Program-made: the position numbers and the translations under genes
The notes under the pieces: model-generated
What the model saw: the letters and a program-made list of their open reading frames with translations, nothing else
Database searches by the model: none
Told to the model about the DNA's origin: nothing
IMG/VR virus record: IMGVR_UViG_2869924733_000002
Length of the DNA: 23,140 nt
DNA from: a virus
Lineage: Duplodnaviria; Heunggongvirae; Uroviricota; Caudoviricetes
Direction: 5' to 3' (one strand)
Shown: positions 1,513-20,901 of the stretch, piece by piece
Position numbering within the stretch: the stretch's first letter is position 1
Layout: every line of letters starts with the position of its first letter

Positions 1513-1738
1513 CTTATTGATTTTTGGGATAATAGGAACAATACACATAGGCGATAAGCTTTGTTTTTGTTGCCTTTTTTATTGTTCATTTTTTATAGAT
1601 ACCCCCAAAAGTACCCCCATATCTTTTTCCGCCCCTGAAATTTGGTTGTTATTCATACAGCATATCAGGCGGTAACGCTCTCCCTTTAACCCACTTATTG
1701 TATGATAGTGCTATCCCACAATAAGGAATCAGCCAGCC

Positions 1739-2098
1739 ATGAGAATGACCAGTCGCAAAAAAGAGATACTTAGCTACTTTGAACCGGATAACCTCGAATG
1801 GGTGACTGGTGAGATTGGTGCGCCGCCGTTCGATGTGTCGGGTGTGGCCTACCTGCTTCATGGCATGGTGTCGTTCGATAAGCGTCACCAGCTCGAATCA
1901 ACCCGGCGCACACTGGAAAGCATGGTTGCTGGTGGACTGCTTGAGCGGGTGACAGTGTATGAATCGCGCCAGATACGGCGCGGCGGTGATACTAACGCAA
2001 CGGTCGTGCGCTACGGTTTACCCGGTCAGTGCGCTGTTATGCGCGATACTGGCGGCGCTGACAACGCAATATCAGGTGAATACATGCGGGTCAGTTAA
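1739..2098 (+). CDS. Hypothetical protein (119 aa)
   Basis: ORF with an AGGA-type Shine-Dalgarno upstream (ataaggaatcagccagccATG) and a protein-like composition. Its 3' end overlaps the convergent gene 2091..2633 by 8 bp. No family recognised. Confidence 0.5.
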   Translation: MRMTSRKKEILSYFEPDNLEWVTGEIGAPPFDVSGVAYLLHGMVSFDKRHQLESTRRTLESMVAGGLLERVTVYESRQIRRGGDTNATVVRYGLPGQCAVMRDTGGADNAISGEYMRVS

Positions 2099-2633
2099 TA
2101 GCCTGCAATCTGTCGTTGATGCGGCTCAGGTCGTAAACCCGGCGTTCAATATCCAGCATCAGGAAATTGTGGATCTCGGCCTGCTCAGGATTATCAGACT
2201 CTCTGGCCTGTAATAGCAATTCATTGTAACCATGCAAGCCGCCTGAGTTTTCCGCCGGGGTGGTGCCTTTCCCACGCAGGCAGCTAATGGGCTGATTACT
2301 CGTATCGTGTGTTTGCTTCTCCAGCACAATGACGCAATCCCACCAGTCGCCAAAGTCATACGTGTAAACCAGCTTGTCACCCTCATTCTGGAGCGCCGCC
2401 CATAGTGGCGTGATTGCCGCGTTACCCATGCTTTCATCCTCACCCCATACGCGATACTCGCTACCTGGATCACCTTTACGCCCTTTCTCGAACATATACA
2501 GGTGTTCGTCATTCCAGCCAAAAGCTAACTGGATCACGGCATGAAGTTTACTAAAGGGGATTTGCTCTGGAACCAGCACACGCCGCCATATAGGTGGTTT
2601 GCTGTCTCGGATGGTTATCTTTAGCTGGTACAT
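2091..2633 (-). CDS. pRiA4b ORF-3-like family protein (plasmid/IS passenger protein of unknown function)
   Basis: 180-aa ORF with the recalled signature of this family (KITIRDSKPPIWRRVLVP...YTYDFGDWWDCVIVLE). Confidence 0.7.
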   Translation of the reverse strand: MYQLKITIRDSKPPIWRRVLVPEQIPFSKLHAVIQLAFGWNDEHLYMFEKGRKGDPGSEYRVWGEDESMGNAAITPLWAALQNEGDKLVYTYDFGDWWDCVIVLEKQTHDTSNQPISCLRGKGTTPAENSGGLHGYNELLLQARESDNPEQAEIHNFLMLDIERRVYDLSRINDRLQAIN

Positions 2634-2753
2634 GCAAATCCTGAATAAATGCGAATCGGAAGGATAACGATACTGACGTACTCACAATTCTGTAAAGGTG
2701 AATAAAGGAAATTTGCTTAATACGCATAAGTTACATGTGGAATAATCCCATAT

Positions 2754-2939
2754 CTACCTGCGCGGCGCTGGCTTCTTCCACTGGTAGGCAGGTGCTCGCA
2801 TCATTTCGCGGAACCTGTCGCGCCGGGCTATATCGGCATTAACTGATCGTTCTATCTCCCGTTGATCTGCCTGTGTAAGCTGGTGGCCTCCGTGCTCAAG
2901 TTTGGCGATGGTCAATAAGGCTATTTCGCGTGGTGTCAT
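2754..2939 (-). CDS. Small hypothetical protein (61 aa), paralog of 3750..3968
   Basis: MTPREIALLTIAKLEHGGHQLT... shares an almost identical N-terminal block with the product of 3750..3968 (TPREIELLTIAKLEHGGHQLS). GAGGG-type SD upstream. Function unknown. Confidence 0.55.
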   Translation of the reverse strand: MTPREIALLTIAKLEHGGHQLTQADQREIERSVNADIARRDRFREMMRAPAYQWKKPAPRR

Positions 2940-3236
2940 ACGTCATACCCTCTGGAAGGATGAAACACGCCCGGATTAAATTTCATTTTTCGCGGGTATA
3001 AAAAAACGATGGGGCGGGCAGTCCCGGATAGTCAGGGCTGTAGAGATTTGACTACCCCCTCCCCACTGGATTCAGGTTACTGCTATTCCGTTAAGCGCTG
3101 CTTACGGGGATAGCTGCGTTGTGATTTTGACCATTCAGGTCGCCGCTATTTCCTCACCGATTGGGTGCTACGCGCGCGCGTACTTGTCCCGAAATACCAG
3201 AAACCGCCAGCCAGAGGATGATTTCCCTCTGGTGGT

Positions 3237-3518
3237 CTACCTTTGCCTCTTGCCGCCATTTAACCGGAAGGCGTTACCGTTCGGTTGCGCTATCCCCATG
3301 CGGTGTTGCGTTTCGGTAACAGCTTTATGCAGGTCGCCAAATTCCTCAACCTTCACGGGCGGGCGCTTCACGTTCTCCAGACACGTTTCACGGCGGCGCT
3401 TTATCCATTCCCGATCATCGTCCTCGGTGCATAACAGCATGACTTCCATCCATCGTGCGGCAGCTCTCCGGTATAGCCCTTTTGACTCCAGCTCTTCAGC
3501 TTTCCTGTCCCTTATCAT
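3237..3518 (-). CDS. PerC-family transcriptional activator-like protein (93 aa)
   Basis: N-terminal block KAEELESKGLYRRAAARWMEVM matches the recalled PerC/Pch-family signature. Assignment is from memory of the family motif. Confidence 0.5.
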   Translation of the reverse strand: MIRDRKAEELESKGLYRRAAARWMEVMLLCTEDDDREWIKRRRETCLENVKRPPVKVEEFGDLHKAVTETQHRMGIAQPNGNAFRLNGGKRQR

Positions 3519-3554
3519 TTCTGCCTCTCAGATTATATAGATAAGCAAAAAGGT

Positions 3555-3675
3555 GTTGGTTCAGTTGGTTCAGTTGGTTCAATTTGTAAAGAGTATTGTT
3601 TTTAAAAGAATTATTCGCAAAAAGTGAACCAACACACCCCATTTTTGAACCAACAAAAAGAGGCCGTGAACCAAC
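3555..3675. repeat. Iteron cluster: GTTGGTTCA x3 in tandem plus three inverted copies (TGAACCAAC) at 21-bp spacing
   Basis: Tandem 9-mers at 3555-3563, 3564-3572, 3573-3581. Inverted copies at 3625-3633, 3646-3654, 3667-3675, each 21 bp apart. The same module is present in reverse orientation at 13139-13249. Confidence 0.8.
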
Positions 3676-3749
3676 ACGCCGTTTAAAAACCGCTAATTAT
3701 GAGGGACATCCACCAGCACAGGGCTTGTCTAGTGCTGGTTAGGTGCTGC

Positions 3750-3968
3750 TCACCGCGCACGGAGCGGCGCTGGTTTGCTCCAGCGATATGCGGGGCTGGT
3801 CATCATTTCGCGGTACCGCCTGGCTATTACAGGGCCCTCTGCCAGCTGGCGCCTTAATTCCCGCAGTTCTGCCGGGCTGAGCTGGTGGCCGCCATGCTCC
3901 AGCTTGGCAATGGTCAGCAGCTCGATTTCTCGTGGTGTCATGGATTCCCCTCTGATGGTGATCGGCAT
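3750..3968 (-). CDS. Small hypothetical protein (about 62-72 aa), paralog of 2754..2939
   Basis: Track ORF MPITIRGESMTPREIELLTIAKLEHGGHQLS...; the true start may be the internal Met at MTPREIELL. Confidence 0.55.
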   Translation of the reverse strand: MPITIRGESMTPREIELLTIAKLEHGGHQLSPAELRELRRQLAEGPVIARRYREMMTSPAYRWSKPAPLRAR

Positions 3969-4107
3969 TATATTGCTAGCCAGGGTGATTCTTCACTGGC
4001 CAGAGCCGTTGTGCGTGAAGTCTATGCGTGAACTCCATATGCTATGTGTTAAGTTACAGCTCAAAATGTCCTGTTCCGGTGGTAACTTTTTGGTAAACAG
4101 CGTTTTG

Positions 4108-4143
4108 GTGGATACCAACATGGATACCTCGCTTTTGGATACC
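4108..4143 (+). promoter_or_regulatory. Three direct repeats of TGGATACC upstream of the AlpA-like gene (putative operator)
   Basis: TGGATACC at 4108-4115, 4121-4128 and 4136-4143, 50-85 bp upstream of the ATG at 4193, in the divergent region between 3750..3968 and 4193..4378. Confidence 0.35.
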
Positions 4144-4192
4144 ACCCAAAGCCAGATTGTCACTATGCTTAATCTAAAGCAGAGGAGCCTCT

Positions 4193-4378
4193 ATGCGCCT
4201 TATCAAATTAAGCGAAGTCATGCTCAGAACGGGCTTCAAGAAAACGGCAATCTACTCATGGGTTAAGACGGGCACGTTTCCACAGCCAGTTAAAATTGGT
4301 AGATCAGCTAGATGGTCGCTTGAGGAGGTTGAAGCTTGGATCCAGAACAAACTTGATTCGCGGGCTGGCAACCAATGA
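4193..4378 (+). CDS. alpA: AlpA-family phage transcriptional regulator / excisionase-like protein
   Basis: 61 aa, MRLIKLSEVMLRTGFKKTAIYSWVKTGTFPQPVKIGRSARWSLEEVEAWI, the typical AlpA helix-turn-helix signature. SD AGAGGAG just upstream. Confidence 0.85.
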   Translation: MRLIKLSEVMLRTGFKKTAIYSWVKTGTFPQPVKIGRSARWSLEEVEAWIQNKLDSRAGNQ

Positions 4379-5342
4379 TTAGCTTTAATATCGAGTGGTG
4401 GATAGTCCATGGACAAGCTGATGGGCGCACTCGACGAAAACGATGCGCCAGGCGGACTGTGTCGCTCATAAACCGGGAGTTGGCCAGAGGACTTAGTTGT
4501 CCTTTGCAATTCTGCAGGTTCGCACGTGAAAGTAGCCAAAACCCTGCGAACCTGAGTGCAAACCTGCAACTGCGAACCACTGAGGTGGCCTCTCATAGCT
4601 GGTGGTCATACTGGATATTAATCAGGCCTGCCACAACCATAACAATCCATAACAGACGCATCGCACCAACAATTACTAATAGGTCCGCTCGCAACACTAA
4701 TTTTGACTAAGCCTGAACGCAATGCTCAGAAAGAACGAAGAATGGAATGAATCGTACCATCATGTTGCTCCATGATTTTTACGTTCAAGACAGTTGCTTA
4801 ATCTCGCCTCGCAATTCAGCCCCCTTGCCGTTATCGAGAAGTCTTTCTCCTTACGGTTAATGCTATCGGTCTTCATATTACCAGCAGCATACGCCATCCG
4901 ATTATTTCGATGCTACGCGCGCGTACTTGTCGCAAAATACCAGGCAAAGGCCAGATTCAGAACGTCGTGATAACCACCAGTACAACATGAGAGGTCATGT
5001 AACGCGATTTATCACACCAGATACATGTGATTGGTGTACCCGCATAAAACATCGTCATAGCGCGTCCTGTGCGCATATACGCCGATAATCAACACATCAC
5101 CACCACTCTGTCTCATGTAGAGAACAGTTTTATGGTATCCCCCCGCCATCGTGTGCATACTGGTCGGACGTAGTTGCAAAATTTTTTGCAACTGATACCC
5201 CTCGCGCGCGTACTTGTCTCGAAATTGGTGTTTTGCTGTGGCAGTGATATCAGAAAAATCTTCCTGTTTCACATAAAGCGGATATGCGCGTACTGTAACG
5301 GCCCCATCAACGGGGATCGGATTTGAAATCCCGACCCAAGCT

Positions 5343-5762
5343 ATGTACCAAATGCCATGTCTTGGATATATGATGATTGCCATTCTAAACAAAGCTAAAG
5401 GGAGGGTTGGTGTGAATGCTCAGGCTGTCATCATGGTTTTCCTTGGTCTGATTGTCGCAAAACTATATCCAGACTGGTGGAAAGGGGCATTAGCAACTGT
5501 CGCCATCTATTTGCTTTTATCCGTCGTTAAGCGATCGTTCGTTAAGACCGTAAATCAAGCAAAACGTTTCTCATTTAAGAATTTAATAAACTATATTACT
5601 GGGCTTATTTTTTGCCTTTCAATTTTGATCGCCTCAGCTTTTTTGCCCGTATCAATAGCTAATTTTTTTGGCGCACCATATGAGGTAGGTTATCTATTCT
5701 CTGTTTTTTGTCTTGTTCTTTCCCTTCTTTACCTATGGATGAGAGCAAAGAACAAAAATTAG
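5343..5762 (+). CDS. Small polytopic membrane protein, AT-rich (candidate superinfection-exclusion or immunity protein)
   Basis: Three to four long hydrophobic segments (VIMVFLGLIVAKL, LATVAIYLLLSVV, ITGLIFCLSILIASAFLPV, LFSVFCLVLSLLYLW). Likely true start is the in-frame GTG at 5412, 5 nt after GGAGGG at 5401-5406. Convergent with the end of the large operon. Confidence 0.55.
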   Translation: MYQMPCLGYMMIAILNKAKGRVGVNAQAVIMVFLGLIVAKLYPDWWKGALATVAIYLLLSVVKRSFVKTVNQAKRFSFKNLINYITGLIFCLSILIASAFLPVSIANFFGAPYEVGYLFSVFCLVLSLLYLWMRAKNKN

Positions 5763-5775
5763 CCATCCATGGCTA
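5751..5775 (-). terminator. Putative intrinsic terminator for the minus-strand operon
   Basis: On the minus strand, a TTAGCCATGGATGGCTAA hairpin (7-bp stem) is followed by TTTTTGT. It lies right after the stop of 5781..7879 and overlaps the stop codon of the convergent gene. Confidence 0.45.
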
Positions 5776-5780
5776 ACCAG

Positions 5781-7879
5781 TTATTGAGCTTCTTTTTGTG
5801 ATGCCTGTGCGACTCTGGTGAGCGATTGTGTGACCGTACTGATCGCTCTGTCATATGCTGTGCTACCTTTTGGCGTATTTGCCAGACGTAACAAGGCATT
5901 TCGTATAACAGGGCTTTCGTATGCCTTCGCTGCTCCGCCTACGGCACCAGCAGCAGGAACAACAAACGCAGCCGTTTTTAGCATCCCCGCTAATACTGCT
6001 GCGTTTATGATGCCACCACCAACTAACAATCCATAAAGCTGCTGACCATTTAAGTTTTGAACGTTCGCTTTTGCCGCGTGTCTTGTATCGTTGAGGTATT
6101 TAATAACGCCGTCCAGTTCCTTTCCATGTACGCCTTTAAAGAAAGTTGCTGATTGCTTCCTGTTCCGGTGTAACGCATTAATAAACTTCTCAACACTGAT
6201 ATTTCCAGACGGATCAGTCGCCTTATCTACAGCATTCTGAACTATGGCTGCTCGTGCGTTTTGCCTACCATTGTCATCCAGAAGCCTGTAAAGCTGAGAA
6301 CGTTCTGATGGGCTTTGGCTAAAAACGAGTTTTGTTACATCCTCAGGCGTGGCCTTGCCGCTGGCTATTGCCTTTTGAACGCGCGTTCTTCCCATCATGT
6401 CATTGAATTTAGACCATGAGCGATCAACCCTTGCCATATTAATGGCTTCGTCTGCTCCAAGATTTTTGGCTACGGCTTTTTTCATATCCGCCGTATATGC
6501 CTTGTAGATAATATCGCTGGCTTTCTGGAGCGTATCTTTATCAACAGTGTCAGATGACGCCATAAATCGCTTTCGAAGATCGGTTCTGTTTTCCCTCGCC
6601 AGACGCAGGTCATTTGGTCCGCTGGTGATATCGTCTTTAAATTGCTGCAAGACTTTTACCGCGGCTCTATCCTGAGATTTGCCCGGGCGGCTTAACACGG
6701 CAATCTGATTGTCGATAGCTTTTACCGTGTTTGAGAGATCGACAGGGGTATCCCCCATAGCGTCAATTATGCGGTTATATCGCTTTCCTGCTGCCTCAAT
6801 GAATTTTTGTTGCCCTTTAGTCGCAGATTCATAAAGCTGTTTATCAGAAATGCCACCCAGACCATCGCTAAATGTTCTGACTAAATTTTCTCGTGCTTGT
6901 TGTTGATTCAGCCGATTCTTACCGGTTCCAAAAAAAGGAACTCTTTCGCCTAATGTCTGAGCCTGACTCTGCATAAAGGTTTTATCTTTCAGCATGTCAC
7001 TGGTCATTAACGGCAGATTTCTTTCCGATGCAAAGTCGACAGCAGCCTTTGCTTCAGGCGACATATCACCACGAACAGCCCTCGAAACCGCACTCGCTGT
7101 ATTTTCCAGCCCCTTACCAATACCACCAATGCCAGCAGAAATTACCGTTTGTAACGGATCAATATCTTCTCCACCAGCAAGGCTGGTGGCTCCCTGTAGT
7201 GCTAAATCTGTAGCTGCTGATTTTCCTATAGCACCAAGCACCGTTCCAGCCCTGCCCACTGGTGTAAACGCCAACGCATTAGCAAGAAACGAAGTCAGGT
7301 CTTGCGGTGATAAACCCGGCTTGTTCAGGGCATAATCACCTGATGGCAGAGAAACGATAGTATTCCCCTTCTCATCCTGCCTTAATGTCGCCCCCATTCC
7401 CTGAAGAATCTTTTCCTGAGACGCGTCAGAGCCGAAAAGTTGAGACCATCCAGCCTTTAGGGCATCCATGCTTAGTGAGTTCAATTCTGGGGCAGAGGTG
7501 ACATTTTGCAGTCTCTCCATCTCTGGAGTCATTCGGCTTTCGCCTGTTATAGCATCGCGCATCGCAGCCCCAAGACTGGCTCCCTGTTCTGCTGAACGCT
7601 CAAGCCCCTCTCTTTGCTGAGTAGCTAACTTTGCATACCCTGACGCAAGAGAATTATCAGATGATGTATGTTGAATATTTTGAGTTGCTGATTGGGATCG
7701 GTCTATTTCATTCGTTGATGGTAGTGGATAGGCAGCATAAAAAGCCTGCTTAGCCTGCTCTACACTTTCTCCGGCTTGCGGGGCAACGACTTCATTGAAG
7801 TATTGCTCCTGAGCCTGCGCTTTTTGTTCTGGTGCTAACGCCTGATACTGTGGAGAGGCGATAACATCTTTCCATGCTT
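5781..7879 (-). pseudogene. Large alpha-helical protein (about 701 aa when reconstructed), cut from its start codon by an IS insertion; DNA-ejection/internal-virion-protein-like (tentative)
   Basis: Track ORF 5781..7562 stays open upstream to 7879. Removing the IS (7882-8797) and one TA copy joins it to ATG GC at 8800-8804, giving MAKAWKDVIASPQYQ... in frame with a TAATG overlap to the upstream gene. Has a hydrophobic Gly/Ala-rich segment near the C-terminus. Confidence 0.6.
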
Positions 7880-7941
7880 TAGGCTGTGTCCCTTAATCAT
7901 CTGAGCTATAGTAACTGTCTGTTTACACAACATATTGAACT

Positions 7942-8391
7942 ATGGCTCGCTACGACCTTCCCGATGAGGCATGGACCATCATCAAGCCCCTGTTACCTCC
8001 TGAACCCGCCACACCACGGGCCGGACGCCCATGGGCTGAGCACCGTAAAATCATCAATGGCATGTTCTGGGTGTTATGTTCCGGTGCACCATGGCGCGAT
8101 TTACCCGAACGATATGGGTCATGGAAAACTGTTTATAACCGCTTTAACCGATGGTCAAAGTCAGGCGTGATTAATATTATTTTCAACAGGTTGCTTTCGC
8201 TACTTGATGCAAACGGCTTTATTGACTGGTCTGCCACCGCGCTGGATGGCAGTAATATCCGGGCGCTGAAATGTGCCGCCGGTGCTCAAAAAAACATCCC
8301 GATATCGACGGAGATAATGGGCCGGGTCGCTCTCGCGGCGGTTTTGGCACCAAAATCCATCTGGCAACAGACGGAAGTGGCCTCCCGTTAA
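7942..8391 (+). CDS. IS5-family transposase OrfA (N-terminal part)
   Basis: MARYDLPDEAWTIIKPLLPP... is the N-terminal domain typical of two-ORF IS5-family transposases. Overlaps OrfB in the -1 frame. Confidence 0.8.
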   Translation: MARYDLPDEAWTIIKPLLPPEPATPRAGRPWAEHRKIINGMFWVLCSGAPWRDLPERYGSWKTVYNRFNRWSKSGVINIIFNRLLSLLDANGFIDWSATALDGSNIRALKCAAGAQKNIPISTEIMGRVALAAVLAPKSIWQQTEVASR

Positions 8392-8786
8392 ATATCGTGC
8401 TAAGCCCCGGACAAGCTCATGAAAGCCAGTTCGCGCAACGACTTCTGGACGGGATTGGCGTTCAGCGTCAGAACGGCAGCATGAAACGCCGTGGACATGC
8501 GGTACTGGCTGATAAAGCGTATTCAGGGCGCGCATTGCGCAACGAGCTGAAAAATAACGGTATAAAGGCAGTAATCCCCCGAAAGTCAAATGAGAAAATG
8601 GCATCGGATGGACGTGCACAGCTTGATCGTGATGCGTACTGCAATCGTAATGTCGTTGAACGGTGCTTTGGGCGGCTGAAAGAATATCGCCGCATCGCCA
8701 CGCGTTACGACAAAACGGCGAGAAATTACCTGGCGATGGTGAAACTGGGCTGCATCCGACTCTTTTATCAACGCTTACGTAATTAA
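8271..8786 (+). CDS. IS5-family transposase OrfB (DDE domain); probably expressed as an OrfAB fusion by -1 frameshift
   Basis: DDE-type motifs (GGFGTKIHLATDGSGLP..., DKAYSG, VERCFGRLKEYRRIATRYDK). An A7 run at 8288-8294 lies in the OrfA/OrfB overlap. Confidence 0.8.
   Translation: MCRRCSKKHPDIDGDNGPGRSRGGFGTKIHLATDGSGLPLNIVLSPGQAHESQFAQRLLDGIGVQRQNGSMKRRGHAVLADKAYSGRALRNELKNNGIKAVIPRKSNEKMASDGRAQLDRDAYCNRNVVERCFGRLKEYRRIATRYDKTARNYLAMVKLGCIRLFYQRLRN
8288..8294 (+). other. Candidate programmed -1 ribosomal frameshift heptamer (AAAAAAA) in the IS5-family transposase
   Basis: OrfA reads caa aaa aac; OrfB reads tca aaa aaa cat, shifted by -1 over the same A-run. Confidence 0.5.
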
Positions 8787-9887
8787 GGGACACAGCCTAG
8801 CCATTAATCACCCCATAGTGAAGAAAAGTTACTGCTGGCTGCTGGCTGTGATACCTGCTCAGATTGCGGCAATGTCTGCGACGAAGAAGAAGTTCCTCTG
8901 TCAACTGCTGAAATAACCCGCAAAGCATCATAAGCTCGACCAGAAGCAGCTTTCAGCGAATTGAACTGGTTTTCCATCTTCCGGCGCTTGGTATCAATGG
9001 TTTTTGTGGAGTCGCCAGGCTGAGGGAAATACATTTGATAATATTTTGACATTTCAGCAGGTGCGATAGCTGCCCCTGTTTCCTGACGGAGTATTGCCAT
9101 TATTGCGTCATTAGCATTAACAACGTATTGCTGCTCTGTTGGGCTGAGCGTTAAGTTAGCCAGCGTCCCATTACCCAAAGCATTATTAATGATCGCCACT
9201 CGCTGTGGGCTAAGCTGGTCTTTCAGTGTATCTATTGAATCAAGAGCATCCCTAACCCTGTATGCAAATCCAGCAGCTTTTTTAGCCCCTTCTGGCGACT
9301 TTTCCATGATCTTTTGGGCTGTTGGCAAAGCTATTGGACGAAACCCATCTCCAGATATTGGCTGGTTTAGTTTTCCCTGCTCTTCACTTCCGTCTGTGTA
9401 GTATTTTGTGACAGTGCCATCATCGTTTTCTCTAACACTCATTAATTTTTTGGCGTTTGTATTAATTCCAGCCGCTGCCGCAAATGCCGCCGCCCCCTCT
9501 GGATCCGCCTTTAACATTTGAGCGTACTGATTGTAATTCTGCATTGCTGCTGTTGGTGCATATGCTGACGTTAACGCATTTGCTCGGCTAATATCCTGCC
9601 CTCTCGCCTGAAGTGCTTCGCCAGCCTGATTGCTGCGGATTGTCTCTGCCAACTTGCCACGCTCAATATCCCGACCTTCCATTTGATCTTTGATATCGAA
9701 ATACTTCTCATGACCGAGAGAAAACAGTGCCATACTACCAGCAAGCCGCTGGAATCCCTGTGGATCATTAACATGCATTTCGGCAACAGACTCAGGAGAA
9801 ATTCCCAAGCGACGCATTTCATCTTCGTTATCTGCTATGAATTTTCCAAATGCCCCAGTTCCGAGCGAAGATGCGATTTGAGCACTA

Positions 9888-11040
9888 AATAGCTGCGCTT
9901 AATACCGCTACACTTTTGCCAGTCCATGTTTGCCTCCGGGGAATGGGCTGACGGTTTCCATAAAATGGCGAACTTTTTTCAACAGTTGCCACATTGAGCG
10001 GCACTGATGATTACGCGTTATTGTGTCGTGAAGTGCCTGCCATAGCCGTTCAACATGATTCACCCATGGCGAGTAAACCGGCTGATAAATGACCCTGAAC
10101 TTCGGGTTCTCCTTCAGCCAGCTCTGTGTTTCCCGGCTTTTGTGGATAATGTAGTTGTCCACGATCAGCGTGATGGTTTTCGCCCGACGGTATGTCGCTT
10201 TAAGCCGCTTCAGCAGGCTGATGAACAGCGCCGAACTTTTGCTGTTGCCGCCCACATAGCTGACTTTACCTGTCCCGCTGTGCAGCGCTCCGGCCAGATA
10301 ATATTTTTCATTCTGTCCCGGCGTGACCACCCGTTTTTGCTGTCCGCGCAGTTGCCAGTCCGCACCGATTTTGGGATGAAGATGGATATCCACTTCATCT
10401 TCATAAAAGACCGGATGCTCTGCGCTGCATTCGTCCAGTGCTTTATGGATTGCTGCCATCTTTTCATCTTTATGCGGGTCACGGATACGCAGAGTTGGCG
10501 CAGCCCTTCGCCACACAATCCCCGCAGACGGCAACCAGCGGCGAACGGTTCCGGCATTTAACTGGCAACCGGTTATCTCATTGATTTTTATTGCCAGCAG
10601 TTCTGTACTCCAGCGTGAACGCTGGTAGCCAAAGTCGCCGGGAGAATGTTTTACCAGCTCACGTAACAGTGTGCAGATATGCTCAAACGGCCAGCGACGG
10701 GCACGCCCGGCAGGTAATGATTTCAGTCCCTCAACACCCGACTGCGTGAACCAGTTAATCCAGCGTCCAACAGAGGAACGGGCGCAGCAGAGCGTTCTGG
10801 CAACGTCGCTGACACGGTCGCCCCGGTGCAGCATCAGCATGGCAGTCAGTCTGCGGGCATAATTTTTATCGTGTGTTTTATGGATGGCTTTCTGCATCAG
10901 GCGTCGTTCGTCACGGGAAATTGGTGCTATGATCGGCATTGCTCAGTCCGGTTGGTGATTTGTTTTGATTTGGCGATTGATCAGATCGCACAATCCGGGC
11001 TAAGTTCCCTCAAAATGATCTACTATTCCGCGCAGCTATT
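9888..11040 (-). mobile_element. IS630 (1153 bp) inserted at a CTAG target with TA duplication
   Basis: Terminal inverted repeats: aatagctgcgc at 9888-9898 and its reverse complement gcgcagctatt at 11030-11040. TA at 9886-9887 and 11041-11042. Length is exactly 1153 bp, matching the recalled IS630 size. Confidence 0.9.
9908..10939 (-). CDS. IS630-family transposase (343 aa)
   Basis: Full-length 343-aa ORF inside the IS630 boundaries, recognised as the Tc1/mariner-like IS630 transposase. Confidence 0.9.
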   Translation of the reverse strand: MPIIAPISRDERRLMQKAIHKTHDKNYARRLTAMLMLHRGDRVSDVARTLCCARSSVGRWINWFTQSGVEGLKSLPAGRARRWPFEHICTLLRELVKHSPGDFGYQRSRWSTELLAIKINEITGCQLNAGTVRRWLPSAGIVWRRAAPTLRIRDPHKDEKMAAIHKALDECSAEHPVFYEDEVDIHLHPKIGADWQLRGQQKRVVTPGQNEKYYLAGALHSGTGKVSYVGGNSKSSALFISLLKRLKATYRRAKTITLIVDNYIIHKSRETQSWLKENPKFRVIYQPVYSPWVNHVERLWQALHDTITRNHQCRSMWQLLKKVRHFMETVSPFPGGKHGLAKV

Positions 11041-11379
11041 TAGTCGCAAGATGACCAATAGAATTTCTCTGGTCGTCATCAATAAAGCCCATCCCTTTCT
11101 GAACGCTTTCAAATTCTTCTGGATACTCAGAAATAAGACTGCGCATTTTGTTTCTGTCTCCAGACTCAAAAGCCCCGGCATATGCTTTCTGAAACTCTGC
11201 TTTACGCTGTTGTTGACGTGCCTGCTGATTAATCTCAGCAACGCCTCTTAGCCCCTGTAGCGCCATTAAACCTACGTTTGGGTGCTGCTGATACTGCACA
11301 GGCTGAGGAACGGAAGAACGAGGAGCATTATCATTTTGCGGTGCCATGCTAGGCAGCCCGCCAAGTTGCCATGTCGCCA

Positions 11380-12057
11380 TTAGAATCCAAGCCCCCCAAC
11401 AAGACCAATAAGCCCACCACCAATAGCCCCGGCGACATTACCTATACCCGGAACAACGGAACCAAGTTGCGCACCCGCTAAAGCGCCTGATGCCGCCCCA
11501 CCAATACCACGCGCAAGACTGGATGGCTGCTGCGCCTGACCTGCACGAATAGCGCCAAGCCCCTGCAAGAGTTGCCCGGTATTATTGGCGTAGTTTTGCC
11601 CTGCTGTTGCCTGCCCTGATGCCGCATTCATCCCGACATTTAGCAGGTTTCCATAATTTTGCATTTGCCCACTGAGCCAATTGTTATAAAGCATGGGCGC
11701 AATGGAAGATAACTGGTTACTGGTAGCTGTTGAGCCAAGCCCCCCGGTAGCTTCTGCTGAGACAAGGTTCTGATAACGGGCCTGATCTGCCTGTGTTTTA
11801 TATAAACCAGAACCAAAGAAATCATTCGCGGCTTTATTCTGCCCTTCCAGAGTCATCAGTCCTTGCAGTTGTTGTAAAGCAGGCAATCCGACTTCTGCAT
11901 ACGGCTTGAGATTATTCATCACCGTATTCCACTGCTCGCGCTGCAAATCAATTGCCTGCTGCTGGGCCTTCGCCTGAGCTTTAGAGGCACCACCATCACC
12001 GCCTTTTTCGTATACGGCACGATTGAGATGTTTATGAGCTATATGGGTAATTAACAT
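11380..12057 (-). CDS. Hypothetical protein (225 aa) with Gly/Ala-rich glycine-zipper C-terminus; ejection-protein-like (tentative)
   Basis: C-terminal ...GIGGAASGALAGAQLGSVVPGIGNVAGAIGGGLIGLVGGLGF. Stop overlaps the next start (TAATG); start overlaps the upstream gene by 7 nt. Confidence 0.65.
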   Translation of the reverse strand: MLITHIAHKHLNRAVYEKGGDGGASKAQAKAQQQAIDLQREQWNTVMNNLKPYAEVGLPALQQLQGLMTLEGQNKAANDFFGSGLYKTQADQARYQNLVSAEATGGLGSTATSNQLSSIAPMLYNNWLSGQMQNYGNLLNVGMNAASGQATAGQNYANNTGQLLQGLGAIRAGQAQQPSSLARGIGGAASGALAGAQLGSVVPGIGNVAGAIGGGLIGLVGGLGF

Positions 12058-12512
12058 TCGCTGAATTCCTTATATTGTTGCCGAGTTAACTGATAAAGCG
12101 TTACGCCGACGGGTTTACCACATCTGATATAAGCATCATCAAGGTGACCAACACGGGTAGCGCCAAGCAAACGGATAATTGCCCGTCCATATTTCGTGGT
12201 GTCAGGAACCATAGTGATGCTGTTAAGGAATGGTGAGTTTTCGAGAAGCCATTTGCAGAATAATCGATGCCCTTGCAGTGCATATTCACCACGGAATCCG
12301 GGGTCGTACACCGCATGGCATTCAACAACGCTATGCCAGAAGTTACGCACTTCATGAACGCCAGCCAGCACTAATCCTTCGTAGATGCCGAGATATACCG
12401 CATCAGGCTTGATGTAGTACGTGTGCCCCGGCTCAACAATATTTTCGGTATTGCCTGGCTCGTTAAGAAAGGCCTGTAATCGCACAGGGTTATCAATAAA
12501 TTTTAGTTCCAT
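12051..12512 (-). CDS. Hypothetical protein (153 aa), first large gene of the operon
   Basis: ATG at 12512 lies 16 bp after the stop of the 53-aa ORF. Protein-like composition; no family recognised. Confidence 0.6.
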   Translation of the reverse strand: MELKFIDNPVRLQAFLNEPGNTENIVEPGHTYYIKPDAVYLGIYEGLVLAGVHEVRNFWHSVVECHAVYDPGFRGEYALQGHRLFCKWLLENSPFLNSITMVPDTTKYGRAIIRLLGATRVGHLDDAYIRCGKPVGVTLYQLTRQQYKEFSEC

Positions 12513-12528
12513 GCGATGCCATCCATTT

Positions 12529-12690
12529 TCACATACAGCCTGCCAGCGCCTTATCTATTAACCCTCGTGCAATTTCATGCAGAGTTGGCGCTACTCCAAT
12601 TCCTGATTTTTTACGCTGCTCTTCCTGAATTTTCTTTATCGCTTCCATTTGCTTCTCACTTATCAATACCGGCTTTACTGAAATAGCCAT
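12529..12690 (-). CDS. Small protein (53 aa), possible ribbon-helix-helix-type regulator
   Basis: Not in the ORF track (shorter than 60 aa). ATG at 12690 is preceded by AAGGGGG. Translation MAISVKPVLISEKQMEAIKKIQEEQRKKSGIGVAPTLHEIARGLIDKALAGCM has a short N-terminal strand followed by helices. Fold assignment is inference. Confidence 0.4.
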   Translation of the reverse strand: MAISVKPVLISEKQMEAIKKIQEEQRKKSGIGVAPTLHEIARGLIDKALAGCM

Positions 12691-13138
12691 AACGCCCCCT
12701 TATAACTGTATAAAACAACAGTTATTATAGTTTCACAAATCGCAATATTCATCATCGTAATTGCAGAATATGAAACAAATAGCACAAAAAAATGCCACCG
12801 CTCAGTAGCTGGTGGCGTCGTTCTGTGTGTCAGGTTTTGACAGGTTTTTTATGGACTCTAAAAACTATATTTATGGTGTCGCATTACTCTTCACGGCAGG
12901 CGCTTTTCAGTTCTGCCCTTGCTTCTGGCTCCATTGGTAATTTGATTCGCGATCAGCTATGCGGATGGTTTGCTGAACAGGCATAACAACTTCTCAGAGG
13001 CTGTTTTTTGAACTACGAAAATTTCGTAGTGCTCACTTTCAAAAACGTCACGCCCTTGTACACAGGATTTTACGAAAGTCTCGTAAAACACTCTCTGATG
13101 CCAGCCAGGTGTTGTGCGCATCAATTCAGTCACATTGT

Positions 13139-13249
13139 GTTGGTTCAAAATACCGTGTTGTTGGTTCAGTGTTGGTTCAATAAAAAGAATAAAATCCTTA
13201 TAAAACAATACCATTTACAAATTGAACCAACTGAACCAACTGAACCAAC
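13139..13249. repeat. Iteron cluster immediately 3' of the primase-helicase gene (crr/ori-like)
   Basis: GTTGGTTCA at 13139-13147, 13160-13168, 13171-13179, then TGAACCAAC x3 in tandem at 13223-13249. Reverse complement of the module at 3555-3675, including an identical core of about 45 bp. Confidence 0.8.
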
Positions 13250-13274
13250 ACCTTTTCTACGCACATGAAGAAGC

Positions 13275-16034
13275 TCATTCTTCAGATGAGTTATAATCTC
13301 CTGGCTGGTAATTGAGTACATAAACGTTTATTTGTCGTCCCTGAATACGTGGTGATTTTCTTTGGTATCCACGACCGCTGTTTGGTGGGGTTAGCATCCC
13401 GGCTTTTTTCAACACTTCAGCAAACTGTTTTGCGTTGAAACCACATGCGATCTCCTTTTCAAATGTGGCCGGGAATGTGTAGAAAATCATTGGGCTTTCG
13501 TCATGTTCTCCACGCTGACGGTATCCGGCTAAATCTTTGATGGGCAAATCTGCCGGGCTGTATGGAAATGGTGCAAAACGGCTAAGCCCATAGGCATTAA
13601 GAAATGCCTCCGTTTGTTCAATAATCTGCTGATGTTCTTTGTTACCTGTGCCGAACTCGCGCAACCATGCGTTATAGCTGTGCTGTATCGCATCACGGCA
13701 TGTCTGAGCATCCCAGCCTGTTACAACCTCGCCTAACAGCAATGCGGCCTCCAGAATGGCAAATCGCGCGGCTACACGGTGAACCTGCTCACCATAATCG
13801 GATGGGATCAGGTTTCTCCATCTGCTTTCGCAATCACGAACGGTTTTAATAGCCTGTTGCTGGTGGTCTGCCAGCCATTTAATCCACTCACGCCCGGCTG
13901 CGCCGTGGTGATGCTGGTAAGCGTCTTTCAGTGCGTCTGCGTGCTGTTTTCCGTTCTGGTAATCGTGAAAGCGTACTGCTTTACTCAACGGAATATTCAG
14001 CAGTCGCACCAGTTGCCCGGCTTTGGTTTTTCGCCCGGAAGTAGCGATAAATGTTTCTAAATCCATTTCTCCGGTGCTGATTGCCACTGTACGCCAGCGT
14101 TTTAGATCCCGGTTTCCACCATCTTTAGCGCCTTGCAGTTTCCCTACACCGTTAAATAACGCATAGGCAGACTGTGAAACGCTGACAGGATCAGCGCCCT
14201 GACCAACTTCATCAAGCGGCATTAGTCCGTCATTGTGGGCGGCGGCCTCATTTGCCAGCCCCAGCGCGGTTCCGTACCACGTCAGCCGCAGTAAATCAGG
14301 GTTGCCGTATAAGCTGCTCGCCACGTTTGCCGTGGTGGTCTTACCTGCGCTCGACTGCTCATAGAAATGAATGCCGAACCCGTCAGCGCCCACCAGCCCA
14401 ATCAATGGCGCTGCCAGTGCTGCGCCGATCCCGGTCATCATTGAATAGTTACCAAAGGCCAGACGCGCCACGTTATCACGCCAGCTTTTCGCGCTCCCTG
14501 AGACGGTATATCCGGCTGCGGCTGAGCTTCTCCCGCTGAACAGCACAGGATTTTCAGGTGTTCCGATGATTTCCCCATCAGGCATGATGTACGCTCCGCA
14601 TTGCCAGCCAGTGGCATGAGCAACACGCCACAATTCACGAGAGCCACTGCGTTGTAGCCAGTCTGCCAGTATTGCTCTGAGGCTGCTTTTGGTCGTGACA
14701 TTTACCCCACCAGCTTTAAGTGTGCGCCATCCTTCACGTTCACCAATATCAGCCAGTGGAATGGCAGCGGTTGTCGGCGTTTCAGAACCAAACGACAGCC
14801 AGCGAAGAATGAGATACTGGTCTTTATCGTCTCTGCCAGTACCGATAACGCTTAACGGAGAACATAACCAGCTTTCGTTATTGATGATTTCTCCACTCTG
14901 GCTGTCAGCTCTCGGAGATACCCAATAAATACCATCCTCGCGGCTTTCTATTCTTGGTTTCAGTGGGTCGGTATCCATAACCTTAAAATCGCTTCCCTCA
15001 ATGGTCTGTGGCTCCTGTTTCACGCCATTACCCTGTGGTTGGTACATTGACTTATTGAACGCTTCTGTGGCGCATTTAATGCCGTGTTTTTGGTGGTAAT
15101 CATTCCAGTCTGCTTTGTGATCTGTCGGGGGTAATGCCACCCATCCAGAAACAGATAAAGCTGCTTTTTCTGCTGCTATTCTCCCCGTGTTTTGTCTTCC
15201 TTCGCTGTGGTCGTTATCCGCAGCAATGATGATTTGTGCTGAAGGAAATTTATCCCGCAGTACCTGGGCGACATATAACAGGTTCCCGGCATCAATCGCC
15301 GCCACTGTCAGCGCCTCTGGACGAATTAAATGGGCAGATAATGCCGTTGCCAGCCCTTCTGCGATTAAGATGCTCTGTGTTGTTTCTGGCGCGTTTATGG
15401 CGTGATATGCCCCCCGCTTTGCTGAACCTGTCAGGAGTCTTTTTTCACCATGTGATGTAATAGTCTGTGCTGCTGTGACTGCGCCGGATTTATCCACCAG
15501 CGCCAGCAACAGAGATCCATCGGGCAACACGGGGAATGTAAAATCACCTACCCCTTTCGCAACCAGATAATCAGATTTGCCGTTTACAGCCTTTCTGCGC
15601 ATGTCATCAAACTGACGGGAAAACGTATCCCGTCTTTGTTGTTCGTCCTTCTCTGCCCTTTTCAGGCGCTCCTGTTCGCGTCGCTGGCGCTCGGTTTCCA
15701 GTTGTTCCCGTTTCTGGCTGGTGGCTTCTGGTGTTTCCGTTGTCCGGTAATCAATACCCAGAACATCAGCGGCAAGAAGCGCCGCCTCTGTTGTGTCGCA
15801 GTTATTTACGCGTTTAATTAAATCCAGCCCATCACCAGCGCCGCACTGATTACAGATGAAGCTACCGCGCCCGTTGTCATCGAACCGGAATCGATCTTTG
15901 CCCCCACATGCAGGGCAGGGAGCATGACGGCGCGGAGAGTCAGGGACATTTATGTTCAGGCAGCCCAGCACATGAGGCCAGTTGTTTTCAGACGCACTGA
16001 TAACCTGACGGATAAGATCAATGTTTCGCATCAC
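13275..16034 (-). CDS. P4 alpha-like bifunctional DNA primase-helicase
   Basis: 919 aa. N-terminal Cys-rich zinc-binding motif (CPACGGKDRF...CNQCG), primase-like acidic motif (IIIAADNDHSEG), then a P-loop (EQSSAGKTT) in the helicase part. Start is GTG at 16034 or ATG at 16031. Confidence 0.9.
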   Translation of the reverse strand: MMRNIDLIRQVISASENNWPHVLGCLNINVPDSPRRHAPCPACGGKDRFRFDDNGRGSFICNQCGAGDGLDLIKRVNNCDTTEAALLAADVLGIDYRTTETPEATSQKREQLETERQRREQERLKRAEKDEQQRRDTFSRQFDDMRRKAVNGKSDYLVAKGVGDFTFPVLPDGSLLLALVDKSGAVTAAQTITSHGEKRLLTGSAKRGAYHAINAPETTQSILIAEGLATALSAHLIRPEALTVAAIDAGNLLYVAQVLRDKFPSAQIIIAADNDHSEGRQNTGRIAAEKAALSVSGWVALPPTDHKADWNDYHQKHGIKCATEAFNKSMYQPQGNGVKQEPQTIEGSDFKVMDTDPLKPRIESREDGIYWVSPRADSQSGEIINNESWLCSPLSVIGTGRDDKDQYLILRWLSFGSETPTTAAIPLADIGEREGWRTLKAGGVNVTTKSSLRAILADWLQRSGSRELWRVAHATGWQCGAYIMPDGEIIGTPENPVLFSGRSSAAAGYTVSGSAKSWRDNVARLAFGNYSMMTGIGAALAAPLIGLVGADGFGIHFYEQSSAGKTTTANVASSLYGNPDLLRLTWYGTALGLANEAAAHNDGLMPLDEVGQGADPVSVSQSAYALFNGVGKLQGAKDGGNRDLKRWRTVAISTGEMDLETFIATSGRKTKAGQLVRLLNIPLSKAVRFHDYQNGKQHADALKDAYQHHHGAAGREWIKWLADHQQQAIKTVRDCESRWRNLIPSDYGEQVHRVAARFAILEAALLLGEVVTGWDAQTCRDAIQHSYNAWLREFGTGNKEHQQIIEQTEAFLNAYGLSRFAPFPYSPADLPIKDLAGYRQRGEHDESPMIFYTFPATFEKEIACGFNAKQFAEVLKKAGMLTPPNSGRGYQRKSPRIQGRQINVYVLNYQPGDYNSSEE

Positions 16035-16389
16035 CGTACCCCACGTGGTCTATAGCGTTTGCGATATGGCTAACCAGCATCTGCCACTTGGTTATTCCGT
16101 AATCAGTCAGCATGCCATCATTGTTTAGCCACATATCAAATTCAGCGGTTGTCGCAAGTTTCCACTTATCGCCGTGGACAGTCCTCATTGCTGGGTACAT
16201 GAATGCGCAAATCAGATCACAAACATCTGACGGCTTCAGAGATGTAGTAATGGTGCGTCCCTCTGGCGTCTGAATTGCCATTTTCTCTTCACCAGTAGAA
16301 TGAAGGTTATGAATCCACACAGCACCAGCAATCTTTGCCACCTGCTCTCCGATTGCGGAGCTAAGCGCCATTTCTGCATTTTCACGCAT
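16018..16389 (-). CDS. Hypothetical protein (123 aa)
   Basis: Strong SD (GGGAGG) before the ATG at 16389. Overlaps the primase start. Confidence 0.6.
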   Translation of the reverse strand: MRENAEMALSSAIGEQVAKIAGAVWIHNLHSTGEEKMAIQTPEGRTITTSLKPSDVCDLICAFMYPAMRTVHGDKWKLATTAEFDMWLNNDGMLTDYGITKWQMLVSHIANAIDHVGYGDAKH

Positions 16390-16723
16390 GAGAACCTCCC
16401 GCTACAGTTGCGCCCATGTCATTAACCATGCTTTGCCATATCTCACGCCCGACGTCAGTCAATCCGTCCTTAGTGACGCAACGCTCAAGAAGCTCGATCC
16501 CCACGGTTTCCCACTGCGGGTAGAACACTTTCATGGCTGCCAGTGTGTAGCTATCGATCAGGCTGCGAACGCCTTTTACTCCATTAACGATTTCCACACG
16601 TACGGCCTCGCCGTCCGCATCAACCATGAAATAGTCCCCGCCGCTGGTGGAGGTAATGTGGTTATACAGTGCCGACGCATACTTATTTGCCAGCGCATTC
16701 AGTCGGAAATTTTTAGTAATCAT
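16382..16723 (-). CDS. Hypothetical protein (113 aa)
   Basis: SD GAGGATGGAG before the ATG at 16723. Overlaps the downstream start by 8 nt. Confidence 0.6.
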   Translation of the reverse strand: MITKNFRLNALANKYASALYNHITSTSGGDYFMVDADGEAVRVEIVNGVKGVRSLIDSYTLAAMKVFYPQWETVGIELLERCVTKDGLTDVGREIWQSMVNDMGATVAGGSHA

Positions 16724-17810: not shown

Positions 17811-18001
17811 TTTTCACCCCCAAGAATTACCAGCTCGGCACGGGCATCGTTAACCAAAGATGAGCACGCTTTAATCGCATCCACGACATCAGTAGCGTCC
17901 ATTTCTTCAGCCGAAAGACTGACAGCAACCAGGACAGCCGCTGCTTGCTCGATTAATTGAAGTGCGGACGTAAGGCGAGGGGTATTAATTGAGTTATTCA
18001 T
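17807..18001 (-). CDS. Small hypothetical protein (64 aa; track ORF 17807..18058 trimmed to the internal ATG)
   Basis: [23 protein letters not shown]... The ATG at 18001 is preceded by a G-rich SD. Confidence 0.45.
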   Translation of the reverse strand: MNNSINTPRLTSALQLIEQAAAVLVAVSLSAEEMDATDVVDAIKACSSLVNDARAELVILGGEK

Positions 18002-19061
18002 TGGTTGCCCCCGTTTTTCCTGGCATTTCGCCACCTTCCAGCAGGAAATGAACGTCACGAACGGCGAGATCCAATATCGCGAGTAACGCCTTCAGTCTTT
18101 CGTCTCGTGAGGGAGAGTTGCTCACCAGAATGTCGTTAATCACTTCTGTCAGTGTGATGATCTGGCTTGTGCGTTCGAGGGGATCCATATGCACATCGTA
18201 GGTTTTAATCATGTGCCACCTCCATGCGGATACGACCAGCAAAAAAGCAGATGTGATCGCGCACCAGAGAACGGCGAGCATCGCGTTCAGACTCGGCAGC
18301 AATATGATGAATTTTGGCGGTAATTGTCGGGCAATCGCGGCGAACTGCGGCGATAATCCAGATAAATTGCGGTTTTTGGGTAGTGGTAGTAGCCAGCATG
18401 TGGCAGCCTCCTTGTACTGGGAGTTCTTCCCACCACCGGAGCTGCGAAACTCGCTGGTGGTGGACTGAACAGAGTTCGCAGTACCGGCGTACAAGGAAAC
18501 CGGCCAGCCTTTCGGCTGCCCTGTCCAGCCCACCATAATTTTGCAAGCGACGCGGATTATAACCGCATCACTGAAAAAAGTGTGAGTCTGGCTAACGGCA
18601 CAAAAAAAGACGCTCGGCGCGTCATGTGTCGCCTCGTACATTTCCGGGCTGCGAAACCCGGCACCCGTTTTATGAGGTGCCTTATAACCATAAACCGTGT
18701 TGCCGCATAACGGCAAGCTCTTTTTTATGGACTCCGAAAACTCACTATTGGAAGCACCAGATGCACAATACATCGCGCTCATTTCGTTAACGTCGCGCGT
18801 GTGGACGAAGGTTTTTGTGGAGTCACTACGCGAGCAGAGAAAGCCATCTACGACCAGAAATTCTCTGGCGCAGCCGCCGACCTTCTCAACGCTAACACCA
18901 TCGACCGTAATTTCTGACATAGTTAAGGCATCCGCTCCCACCACCAGAAAATGATAAACTTTGCTTGTATCTGCTGTATTAATGCCAGACTTTGCTGTCA
19001 TATTGCTGGATTTTGGCGACATACCAGCCAGTGAAAATATCTTCTTCTGGACGGTTAGCAT
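17994..19061 (-). CDS. Gene with a strong start at 19061; the 355-codon open frame has an ambiguous 3' end (see findings)
   Basis: ATG at 19061 with GGAGGT SD, 1 nt after the upstream stop. The N-terminal 150 or so residues look protein-like. The frame then stays open through a terminator-like hairpin (18601-18623), a structured region and an internal SD+ATG at 18212 (MIKTYDVH..., 72 aa). Confidence 0.4.
18205..18399 (-). CDS. Small hypothetical protein (64 aa) in an alternative frame
   Basis: AAGGAGG sits 7 nt upstream of the ATG at 18399 ([19 protein letters not shown]...). Its stop overlaps the internal ATG at 18212. Confidence 0.4.
   Translation of the reverse strand: MLATTTTQKPQFIWIIAAVRRDCPTITAKIHHIAAESERDARRSLVRDHICFFAGRIRMEVAHD
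18601..18623 (-). terminator. Putative intrinsic terminator or attenuator inside the long open frame
   Basis: Minus strand: GACGC-GCCGA-GCGTC hairpin followed by TTTTTTT. A TGA in another frame sits just before it. Confidence 0.35.
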
Positions 19062-20507: not shown

Positions 20508-20704
20508 TACGCTACCTCGCCACGCGACTCAGCGATGCGCTGATTAATCCATTCTTCAATTTCACTTTCAATAAACGCAATTGATCGGCTTCCAATCTTT
20601 ACAGATTGAGGGAATCGCTGTTCTTTGATGAGCCGATAAATCCACGCTTTGCTGTAACCAGTACGGCGTTGAACCTCAGAAAGACGAATAAATGATTGAG
20701 ACAT
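20507..20704 (-). CDS. alpA: AlpA-family phage transcriptional regulator / excisionase-like protein
   Basis: 65 aa, MSQSFIRLSEVQRRTGYSKAWIYRLIKEQRFPQSVKIGSRSIAFIESEIEEWI. SD AGGAG upstream. Confidence 0.85.
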   Translation of the reverse strand: MSQSFIRLSEVQRRTGYSKAWIYRLIKEQRFPQSVKIGSRSIAFIESEIEEWINQRIAESRGEVA

Positions 20705-20822
20705 GTTTACTCCTATATTCTGTCATCTTCTTTAATGGACATCAGTAGACAGAAAGGAGATTAAACAAACCGGTGAATGGGTGATAGCGGATAAAAATAA
20801 AATATTTTTTTGAGAAGATTAT

Positions 20823-20857: not shown

Positions 20858-20901
20858 AAATCGCGAAATTTACTTAAAACGTTTACGTAGGATTTTGCTT
20901 G

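Follow-up and report, generated by a model that had tools for sequence, protein, structure and literature searches.

Inverted iteron modules as probable paired origin units of a PICI-type satellite at Escherichia coli thrW, with accessory genes between them

INTRODUCTION

In the SaPIs and other phage-inducible chromosomal islands (PICIs), the origin of replication directly follows the 3' end of rep or pri-rep and consists of opposed iteron sets around an AT-rich region. The initiator is an MCM-like helicase that loads itself and recognizes the iterons through its C-terminal winged helix (PMC9371898; PMC6092414). PICIs have an accessory region downstream of pri (PMC11364771), and some of those in E. 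coli carry PerC variants (PMC6092414). We compared the window, by which we mean the whole 23,140-bp stretch of DNA analysed here, with SaPIbov1, SaPI1, SaPI5 and E. coli EcCICFT073. Like the origins of these systems, the two repeat modules of the window (left, M2; right, M1) both consist of opposed short iterons flanking an AT-rich spacer; the presumed initiator, PriRep, is likewise a DUF927 helicase with a predicted C-terminal winged-helix iteron reader, and, as in SaPI5, a primase is fused to Rep. The window differs from them in that there are two complete units, which form a dyad in most relatives and lie 0.2-9.6 kb apart here and in ~12 other elements, and in that the 9-mer iterons keep to one arrangement, with three copies in tandem and three phased. 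With respect to position, M1 begins 25 bp after the pri-rep stop codon, whereas M2 is 9.6 kb off, although the counterpart of M2 is adjacent in ~27 compact relatives. We found no description of a duplicated, inverted PICI origin with the accessory region inside it in the papers searched.

The P4 system offers a second comparison. In the P4 record, crr (4291-4590) directly follows the alpha gene (4636-6969) and ori (9086-9809) lies 4.7 kb away; both contain the same type 1 repeats, and crr is a pair of direct 120-bp repeats. As in P4, the same iteron is found in the window in two clusters kilobases apart and in mixed orientations, one just past the primase-helicase gene, the other next to a gene of the AlpA/Vis family. 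The N-terminal primase domain is homologous to that of P4, and the window has a P4-type integrase, a C4/CI-like RNA and an int-alpA RNA. The helicase part, in contrast, is of the DUF927/SaPI Rep type and not of the P4 alpha type, and the P4 core genes psu, delta and sid had no match among the window ORFs scanned. The type 1 repeat of P4 is TGTTCACC, which differs from the window iteron, TGAACCAAC. Both P4 sites, ori and crr, are reportedly required in cis, a result ascribed to Flensburg and Calendar in 1987 and to Ziegelin and Lanka in 1995; the single-module relatives found here suggest that, unlike in P4, the second site is dispensable. Iteron plasmids (R6K with alpha, beta and gamma; P1, F and RK2 with handcuffing) also have several repeat clusters for the same initiator, which can pair by looping, but their initiator family is unrelated (RepA/Pi type versus helicase-initiator).

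By the criteria that Fillol-Salom et al. are said to have set in 2018, Gram-negative PICIs contain no phage structural or lytic genes and are ~10-15 kb in length. The window resembles these elements in having int, alpA, pri-rep and ori in this order and in one direction, with thrW as the att site (Fillol-Salom et al. 2018). The element departs from the canonical PICI in its size, which is at least 21.6 kb, and in its P22-like gp14-, gp7-, gp20- and gp16-like genes, whose functions concern phage DNA delivery. Because of this large size and these DNA-delivery genes, we refer to the element as PICI-type and not as a canonical PICI.

RESULTS

All copies of the iteron motif lie in two inverted modules

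The motif GTTGGTTCA occurs 12 times in the window, compared to 0.10 copies expected from 100 shuffles and a maximum of one copy in any shuffle, and all 12 copies are confined to two inverted modules. Thus, a sequence-only reading of this DNA, which had described the same iteron module twice in opposite orientations, is borne out on this point. Each module has three tandem and three phased exact 9-mers, on opposite strands, around a 43-bp spacer (Table 1); the GC content of the spacers is 16% and 21%, versus a window mean of 48%. The motifs AAAACAA and CTTTACAAAT are common to the AT-rich spacers of M2 and M1 and are conserved. The gene contexts are also those described earlier, with M1 after the primase-helicase gene and M2 upstream of PerC: M2 ends 36 bp upstream of the PerC ATG and is 24 bp from the operon of small ORFs and second alpA on its other side.

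Alignment of the two modules showed that the likeness between them is unevenly distributed. The longest identical inverted stretch is 43 nt (3548-3590 is the reverse complement of 13214-13256), and it is part of inverted arms of 65 nt (3548-3612 and 13192-13256) that are 91% complementary. In the phased half, the match between M2 and M1 is limited to the 9-mers; the spacers differ, and the M1 copy is 10 bp shorter. The earlier description of one module as the reverse complement of the other therefore holds for the 43-nt core and the 65-nt arms, but in the phased half only for the 9-mers themselves.

A dispersed repeat of the REP or IS type, which had been named as the finding that would speak against an origin, does not account for the modules: 12/12 copies are in the two modules, and in the matching E. 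coli genomes the motif is found at a median of 2 places. Roughly 600 E. coli genomes carry the two modules. A related locus (L001) has one stray motif copy in 41 kb. We also rejected the idea that the module arms are the ends of an IS, since each of the window's two IS elements has separate inverted repeats. Sigma-70 scans around both modules gave no promoter-like sites, terminator scans gave nothing above background at the modules, and an Rfam search gave no RNA family at M1 or M2. Elsewhere in the window, a 28-nt motif, CGCGCGCGTACTTGTCnCGAAATACCAG, is present in three direct copies (3173-3200, 4916-4943 and 5203-5230) with no homology beyond ~35 nt.

Table 1. Coordinates of the principal features of the window
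Feature	Position	Strand	Basis or remarks
Truncated attR core GATAATAGGA	1528-1537	.	Reverse complement of thrW 3' end TCCTATTATC; distal element end
Conserved right arm	1739-2939		o61 2754-2939 (-); pRiA4b ORF-3 family gene 2091-2633 (-); o119p 1739-2098 (+)
PerC-family regulator gene	3237-3518	-	Pfam PF06069, E 3.7e-30; immediately downstream (- strand) of M2
Left module M2, putative distal origin unit	3548-3675	.	Repeats; collinearity with second half of relatives' compact origins
M2 tandem 9-mers	3555, 3564, 3573 (3555-3581)	+	
M2 AT-rich spacer	3582-3624		43 bp, 21% GC
M2 phased 9-mers	3625-3633, 3646-3654, 3667-3675	-	Exactly 21 bp apart
Accessory DNA between putative origin units	3690-13098	.	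~9.4 kb; breakpoints from alignment to compact origins and TGCCAGCC at 13099
Second AlpA-family gene	4193-4378	+	Pfam PF05930, E 1.9e-13; RefSeq: HTH regulator
Right module M1, putative primase-proximal origin unit	13139-13256	.	Repeats; same module 3' of primase in relatives
M1 phased 9-mers	13139-13147, 13160-13168, 13171-13179	+	21 and 11 bp apart
M1 AT-rich spacer	13180-13222		43 bp, 16% GC
M1 tandem 9-mers	13223, 13232, 13241 (13223-13249)	-	
PriRep primase-helicase	13275-16034	-	919 aa; presumed initiator
PriRep C-terminal domain	13278-13862		aa 725-919; predicted iteron binder
alpA	20507-20704	-	Pfam
DUF6387 gene	20902-21783	-	Pfam
P4-type integrase	21926-23140	-	Pfam; thrW-proximal end of element (20507-23140)

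Both modules lie within one element at thrW

The window represents an E. coli island of the PICI type at tRNA-Thr (thrW), in which the genes are ordered int, alpA, pri-rep, origin and PerC when read on the minus strand, with AntA, an 'Ash' ORF and several small ORFs between alpA and PriRep on the same strand. In L001, the tRNA-Thr gene lies directly beyond the integrase. At the other end, the right arm of the window aligns with that of a Lonsdalea locus (L012) through o119p up to TTCCTATTATC, and the two diverge inside the 19-bp att core; we therefore placed a truncated attR at 1528-1537. The core appeared only by the L012 alignment, as searches of the window for a thrW att copy with exact 14-mers and by local alignment found nothing. 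Similarity to other E. coli islands starts at ~1509-1528. The element spans ~1528 to beyond 23140, and is ~19.5 kb long minus its two IS elements.

The borders are seen most completely in L012. Here the thrW 3' end is directly repeated over 19 bp, at 2911 and at 20558, and between the two copies lie a single int, PriRep, M1, cargo of 5.8 kb, M2, o61, pRiA4 and o119p. Two other relatives, L023 and L039, have direct repeats of 52 bp and 21 bp, respectively, just past o119p.

Outside attR (1-1512), the window begins with the 3' part of an IS3-family transposase gene (1-819). A tandem duplication of 28 bp follows at 1174-1229, and 1198-1512 encodes a C-terminal piece of a different integrase, for which a 71%-identical homologue is present inside an Enterobacter locus (L003). 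This left end differs from all of the best-matching E. coli islands, which can be aligned only from ~1509. We considered K-12 CP4-6 as a second element and rejected it, since no homologues of IntF or yagJ-N are present in the window; the fragment at 1198-1512 is not IntF-like and lies outside attR.

Relatives have compact or split origins

We mapped iterons and homologous genes in 77 loci around PriRep relatives, using one genome per species. A module of the M1 type is found right after the primase stop codon in nearly all full-length relatives. In ~27 of them (e.g. L003, L005, L007, L023, L045), a second, inverted half is directly adjacent, giving a dyad of ~300 bp, while in ~12 the second half is 0.2-9 kb away (L012, L019, L020, L025, L034, L037, L054, L059, L060, L061, L048, L041). 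The split layout is found in at least 8 genera, with the iterons conserved. Further compact forms were found in E. coli and in a Klebsiella record; the latter was the sole match in a search of a phage database and has a related compact origin after its PriRep homologue. Eleven relatives show M1 alone within 10 kb of downstream sequence; therefore the second unit is probably not essential, and these single-module relatives suggest that M2 is helpful instead.

If M1 of the window (to GGCTGGCA, ~13099) is joined to M2 (from ~3690), the product is collinear with the compact origins of L023, L045, L003 and L005, and this collinearity includes the AT-rich spacer and the flank ACACCTTTTTGCTTAT. The PerC gene follows the compact origin in L007, L009, L005, L011 and L003, and the order origin, (PerC), o61, pRiA4, o119p, attR is alike in L007, L009, L012 and L045, and in L023 without pRiA4. 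From the collinearity with compact origins and the borders of the element, we conclude that M1 and M2 are inside one element.

This result bears on two proposals of the sequence-only reading, that M2 is an orphan origin that could be used in trans or that it is a recombination scar between two elements. The first is contradicted by the presence of M2 in the same integrated element as the primase gene, between attR and int, and by the ~27 relatives in which its counterpart adjoins the primase-proximal module and is followed by PerC, o61, pRiA4 and o119p as here. The second is at odds with the recurrence of the split layout in ~12 related elements of other genera and with L012, where both modules and a single int lie between the 19-bp att repeats.

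The DNA between the modules contains o53, the P22-like gp14-, gp7-, gp20- and gp16-like genes and two IS, and, on the plus strand, the second alpA and small ORFs; an IS-free version of the interval is ~7.5 kb (L001; strain CFSAN061761). Frequent inversion of the interval by way of the inverted modules was rejected because the window and its best E. coli island matches are collinear and because o53 always points away from the primase-proximal module. The two inner iterons are opposite in orientation between compact and split second halves, and the spacers are too diverged to trace a small inversion.

Every split example belongs to one iteron class, GAACCAAC, and co-variation of both modules across iteron classes was seen only where the modules are adjacent. 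A Serratia oryzae locus (L056) has a distal GAACCAAC-type module at 17860-18008, yet its primase-proximal iterons are TGGGATAA. In L012, L019, L020, L025 and L059, the stretch from the second module to a conserved leftward gene (~145 aa) contains tandem GTAAGACAnnGTAAGACA; this motif looks like a candidate for a separate operator.

One E. coli genome, O111:H- 11128 (L079), carries at 12640-16663 a block of o119p, pRiA4, o61, PerC, the left module, alpA and o139p; the 1.2 kb of it that we compared, around PerC and the left module, matches the window at 100% identity. The block is in a rearranged thrW region without a primase gene, right module or P22-like genes, and its left module is an orphan in the true sense. 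In principle, this copy could be fired in trans by a related satellite that has the same iteron specificity.

The iterons of the left module are conserved

Among nine split elements from different genera, the iteron columns of M2 are 94% identical to the window, compared to 54% for the other M2 columns. Judged by this pattern, which is the signature of selection on a binding site, the M2 iterons are under purifying selection. All six 9-mers of the window M2 are perfect, and the exact 21-bp spacing of the phased copies, to which the sequence-only reading had drawn attention, is retained in L054, L059, L019 and L025; one or two exact iterons have been lost in the second modules of L012, L020 and L025.

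The AT-rich spacers of M2 modules are 62-88% alike among themselves, versus 65% for the window M2 and its own M1. Since M2 spacers are closer to other M2 spacers than to M1, the two units are old paralogues that have been separately maintained. Concerted evolution or gene conversion between M1 and M2 was rejected, as second modules cluster together and not with their own partners, and M2 is not a recent copy of M1, as it is nearer to other left modules than to its partner. Both the selection on its iterons and this affinity argue against M2 as a scar of recombination between elements.

The surroundings of M2 contain further duplicates. A paralogue of o61 (3750-3968, minus strand) is 62% identical to o61 and lies on the strand opposite to a 52-aa ORF (3699-3857, plus strand), a homologue of which adjoins the second module in Leclercia (L054). 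The second alpA, 44% identical to the main alpA, points away from M2, past this small ORF. The o61 paralogue, the second alpA and the mismatched distal module of L056 hint at a mosaic history, and mosaic recombination may have been the original source of the split layout.

PriRep combines two kinds of replication protein

PriRep has a zinc ribbon (aa 35-70), a Toprim domain (aa 222-319) and a DUF927 helicase domain (aa 366-644). Its N-terminal ~350-360 aa are 33% identical to the P4 alpha primase (E 2e-41), and no significant similarity to PriRep was found in P4 alpha beyond the primase domain (from ~aa 360). The DUF927 part matches the replication initiator of a staphylococcal pathogenicity island (PDB 8tch, E 4e-12) as well as the Cch helicase, and the fold of the C-terminal domain is predicted to resemble that of the SaPI Rep C-terminal domain. 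Thus, with a P4-like primase N-terminus and a SaPI-Rep-like DUF927 part, PriRep is a fusion of both.

We compared residues between iteron classes in 38 PriRep relatives, of which 24 sequences belong to the GAACCAAC class and 5 to the AGACAACA class. All of the columns that fully separate these two classes (8/8) are at aa 824-911 of 919, and for the ACGGGTTA class, 20 of the 23 separating columns are at aa 821-904. The clearest class difference is RGYQRKSPRI versus RGYQGRV-RE, in which QRKSPRI occupies aa ~891-897. However, the region that codes for the C-terminal domain is 30-300 bp from the iterons, so near that linkage alone could yield the association between domain and iteron class. We infer from these comparisons that PriRep probably binds the 9-mers. 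The view that the iteron arrays are a replication origin belonging to the adjacent primase-helicase, also put forward in the sequence-only reading, is supported by the comparisons made here.

Accessory genes and RNAs of the island

The cargo includes a P22-like block on the minus strand (5781-12690) with o53, a gp14-like DUF2824 gene (12051-12512), a gp7-like gene (11380-12057), and gp20-like and gp16-like genes. An IS with a DUF4096 ORF (7880-8799; inverted repeats 7880-7906 and 8773-8799) truncates the gp16-like gene, the product of which is 593 aa here versus 701 aa in strain CFSAN061761, and an IS630-family element (9884-11044; inverted repeats 9884-9904 and 11024-11044; transposase 9908-10939) splits the gp20-like gene. 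As both of these genes are broken by IS elements, the element may be inactive in this strain.

The same slot in relatives holds other genes of the phage tail or injection type, for tape-measure-domain proteins, a 600-aa protein with an SLT-transglycosylase domain and another protein that weakly matches a baseplate hub; relatives also have Beta_protein (PF14350) and Fic genes. It seems unusual for satellites to carry tail or injection genes from phages of different types, and such genes may act as decoys, as interference factors or as replacements of helper parts.

Rfam matches to a C4 antisense RNA (18453-18540, 81 bits) and an isrK RNA (18603-18680, 69 bits), both on the minus strand, fall within 17994-19061, a 355-aa ORF with the annotation 'Ash family protein', and overlap its Pfam Ash match; this annotation may stem from translation of an RNA-immunity locus of the P4 CI or P1 c4 type. 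A third Rfam match, to int-alpA RNA, is at 21798-21865 on the minus strand, between int and the DUF6387 gene.

DISCUSSION

We consider it probable, at roughly 0.6, that M1 and M2 each form a complete origin unit bound by PriRep within a single satellite and that M2 serves as a cis-linked second origin or auxiliary site. In this model, which is drawn from sequence comparisons, both modules belong to one PICI-type satellite integrated at thrW, and each would be a complete origin unit in which TGAACCAAC iterons are opposed around a 43-bp spacer that acts as the melting site. The C-terminal winged-helix domain of PriRep would read the iterons, and PriRep, as a hexameric helicase, would load itself at the modules. 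The units are direct neighbors after pri-rep in most relatives, and in the lineage of the window the accessory region (7.5 kb plus two IS) lies in between; the two iteron sites of P4, ori and crr, offer a precedent for such a layout. M1 would then be the canonical origin after pri-rep, and M2 would fire as a second origin or assist M1; M2 might also affect the adjacent PerC and alpA promoters.

A further step, more tentative and in our judgment somewhat unlikely, is that a dyad origin works with its halves up to ~9 kb apart because PriRep bound at both units pairs them by looping, in analogy to P4 ori and crr, so that the accessory hotspot would be deliberately embedded in the origin.

M2 might instead be mainly a transcriptional operator, at which PriRep or another protein of the element controls the promoters of PerC and of the small ORFs and second alpA, with no role in replication. 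We regard this as improbable. It is true that M2 takes up the whole intergenic space between divergently arranged genes, but it also keeps the full anatomy of an origin, including the two spacer motifs that it has in common with M1. Closeness to the PerC promoter is not conserved, as PerC starts 65-540 bp beyond the second half in compact relatives, and no sigma-70-like promoter was found at 3200-4000. In five split relatives, another tandem motif (GTAAGACA twice) and a conserved gene that reads leftward adjoin the second module, which does give the impression of a regulatory hub, and the 11 relatives with M1 alone apparently manage with one module.

It is still less probable that M2 is a functionless and slowly decaying relic of an ancestral dyad origin, so that only the primase-proximal module matters. 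Relatives in which no second module is detectable within 10 kb, and the exact iterons missing from the second modules of L012, L020 and L025, would be expected of such a relic; the six perfect 9-mers of the window M2, the difference in conservation between iteron and spacer columns across genera and the kept 21-bp phasing would not.

We give least weight to the proposal that M2 is an orphan origin from a second related element, left by a tandem insertion or as a recombination scar and usable only in trans, for which one could cite the duplicated neighbours (o61 paralogue and second alpA), the integrase fragment at 1198-1512, the PerC and left-module block of O111:H- 11128 without any primase gene and the mismatched iterons of L056, but against which stand the genes left of M2, which are the canonical right arm after the compact origin in relatives, the single int and single att pair around both modules in L012, the end of the window right arm at a thrW-type att core with the integrase fragment outside, the conserved iterons of the split layout in at least 8 genera and the greater closeness of M2 to other left modules than to M1, hence no recent copy. 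If, as we favor, M1 and M2 are two halves of the origin of one satellite, parted by accessory genes, M2 is neither an orphan nor the leftover of a second element. A false lead is thereby removed, and the window is left without a second element and without a trans-acting orphan origin.

The accessory region after pri was already known; what appears to be new is its location inside a duplicated, inverted PICI origin. PICI and SaPI origins have been described as one unit of iterons, AT-rich region and iterons after rep, while the origin of the family described here is duplicated and inverted and tolerates kilobases between its halves. If the distal unit is active, the borders of satellites and the 'orphan' iteron sites in E. 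coli islands need to be re-read, and PICIs would have a counterpart to the long-known and poorly understood requirement of P4 for ori and crr. Activity of the distal unit would also make it testable whether accessory and anti-phage genes placed inside the origin gain in dosage on induction. If, in addition, the two units do pair by looping, the cargo would be flanked by two initiation sites that fire both inward and outward and would be amplified first on induction, and it would be exchangeable as a cassette by recombination at the conserved modules.
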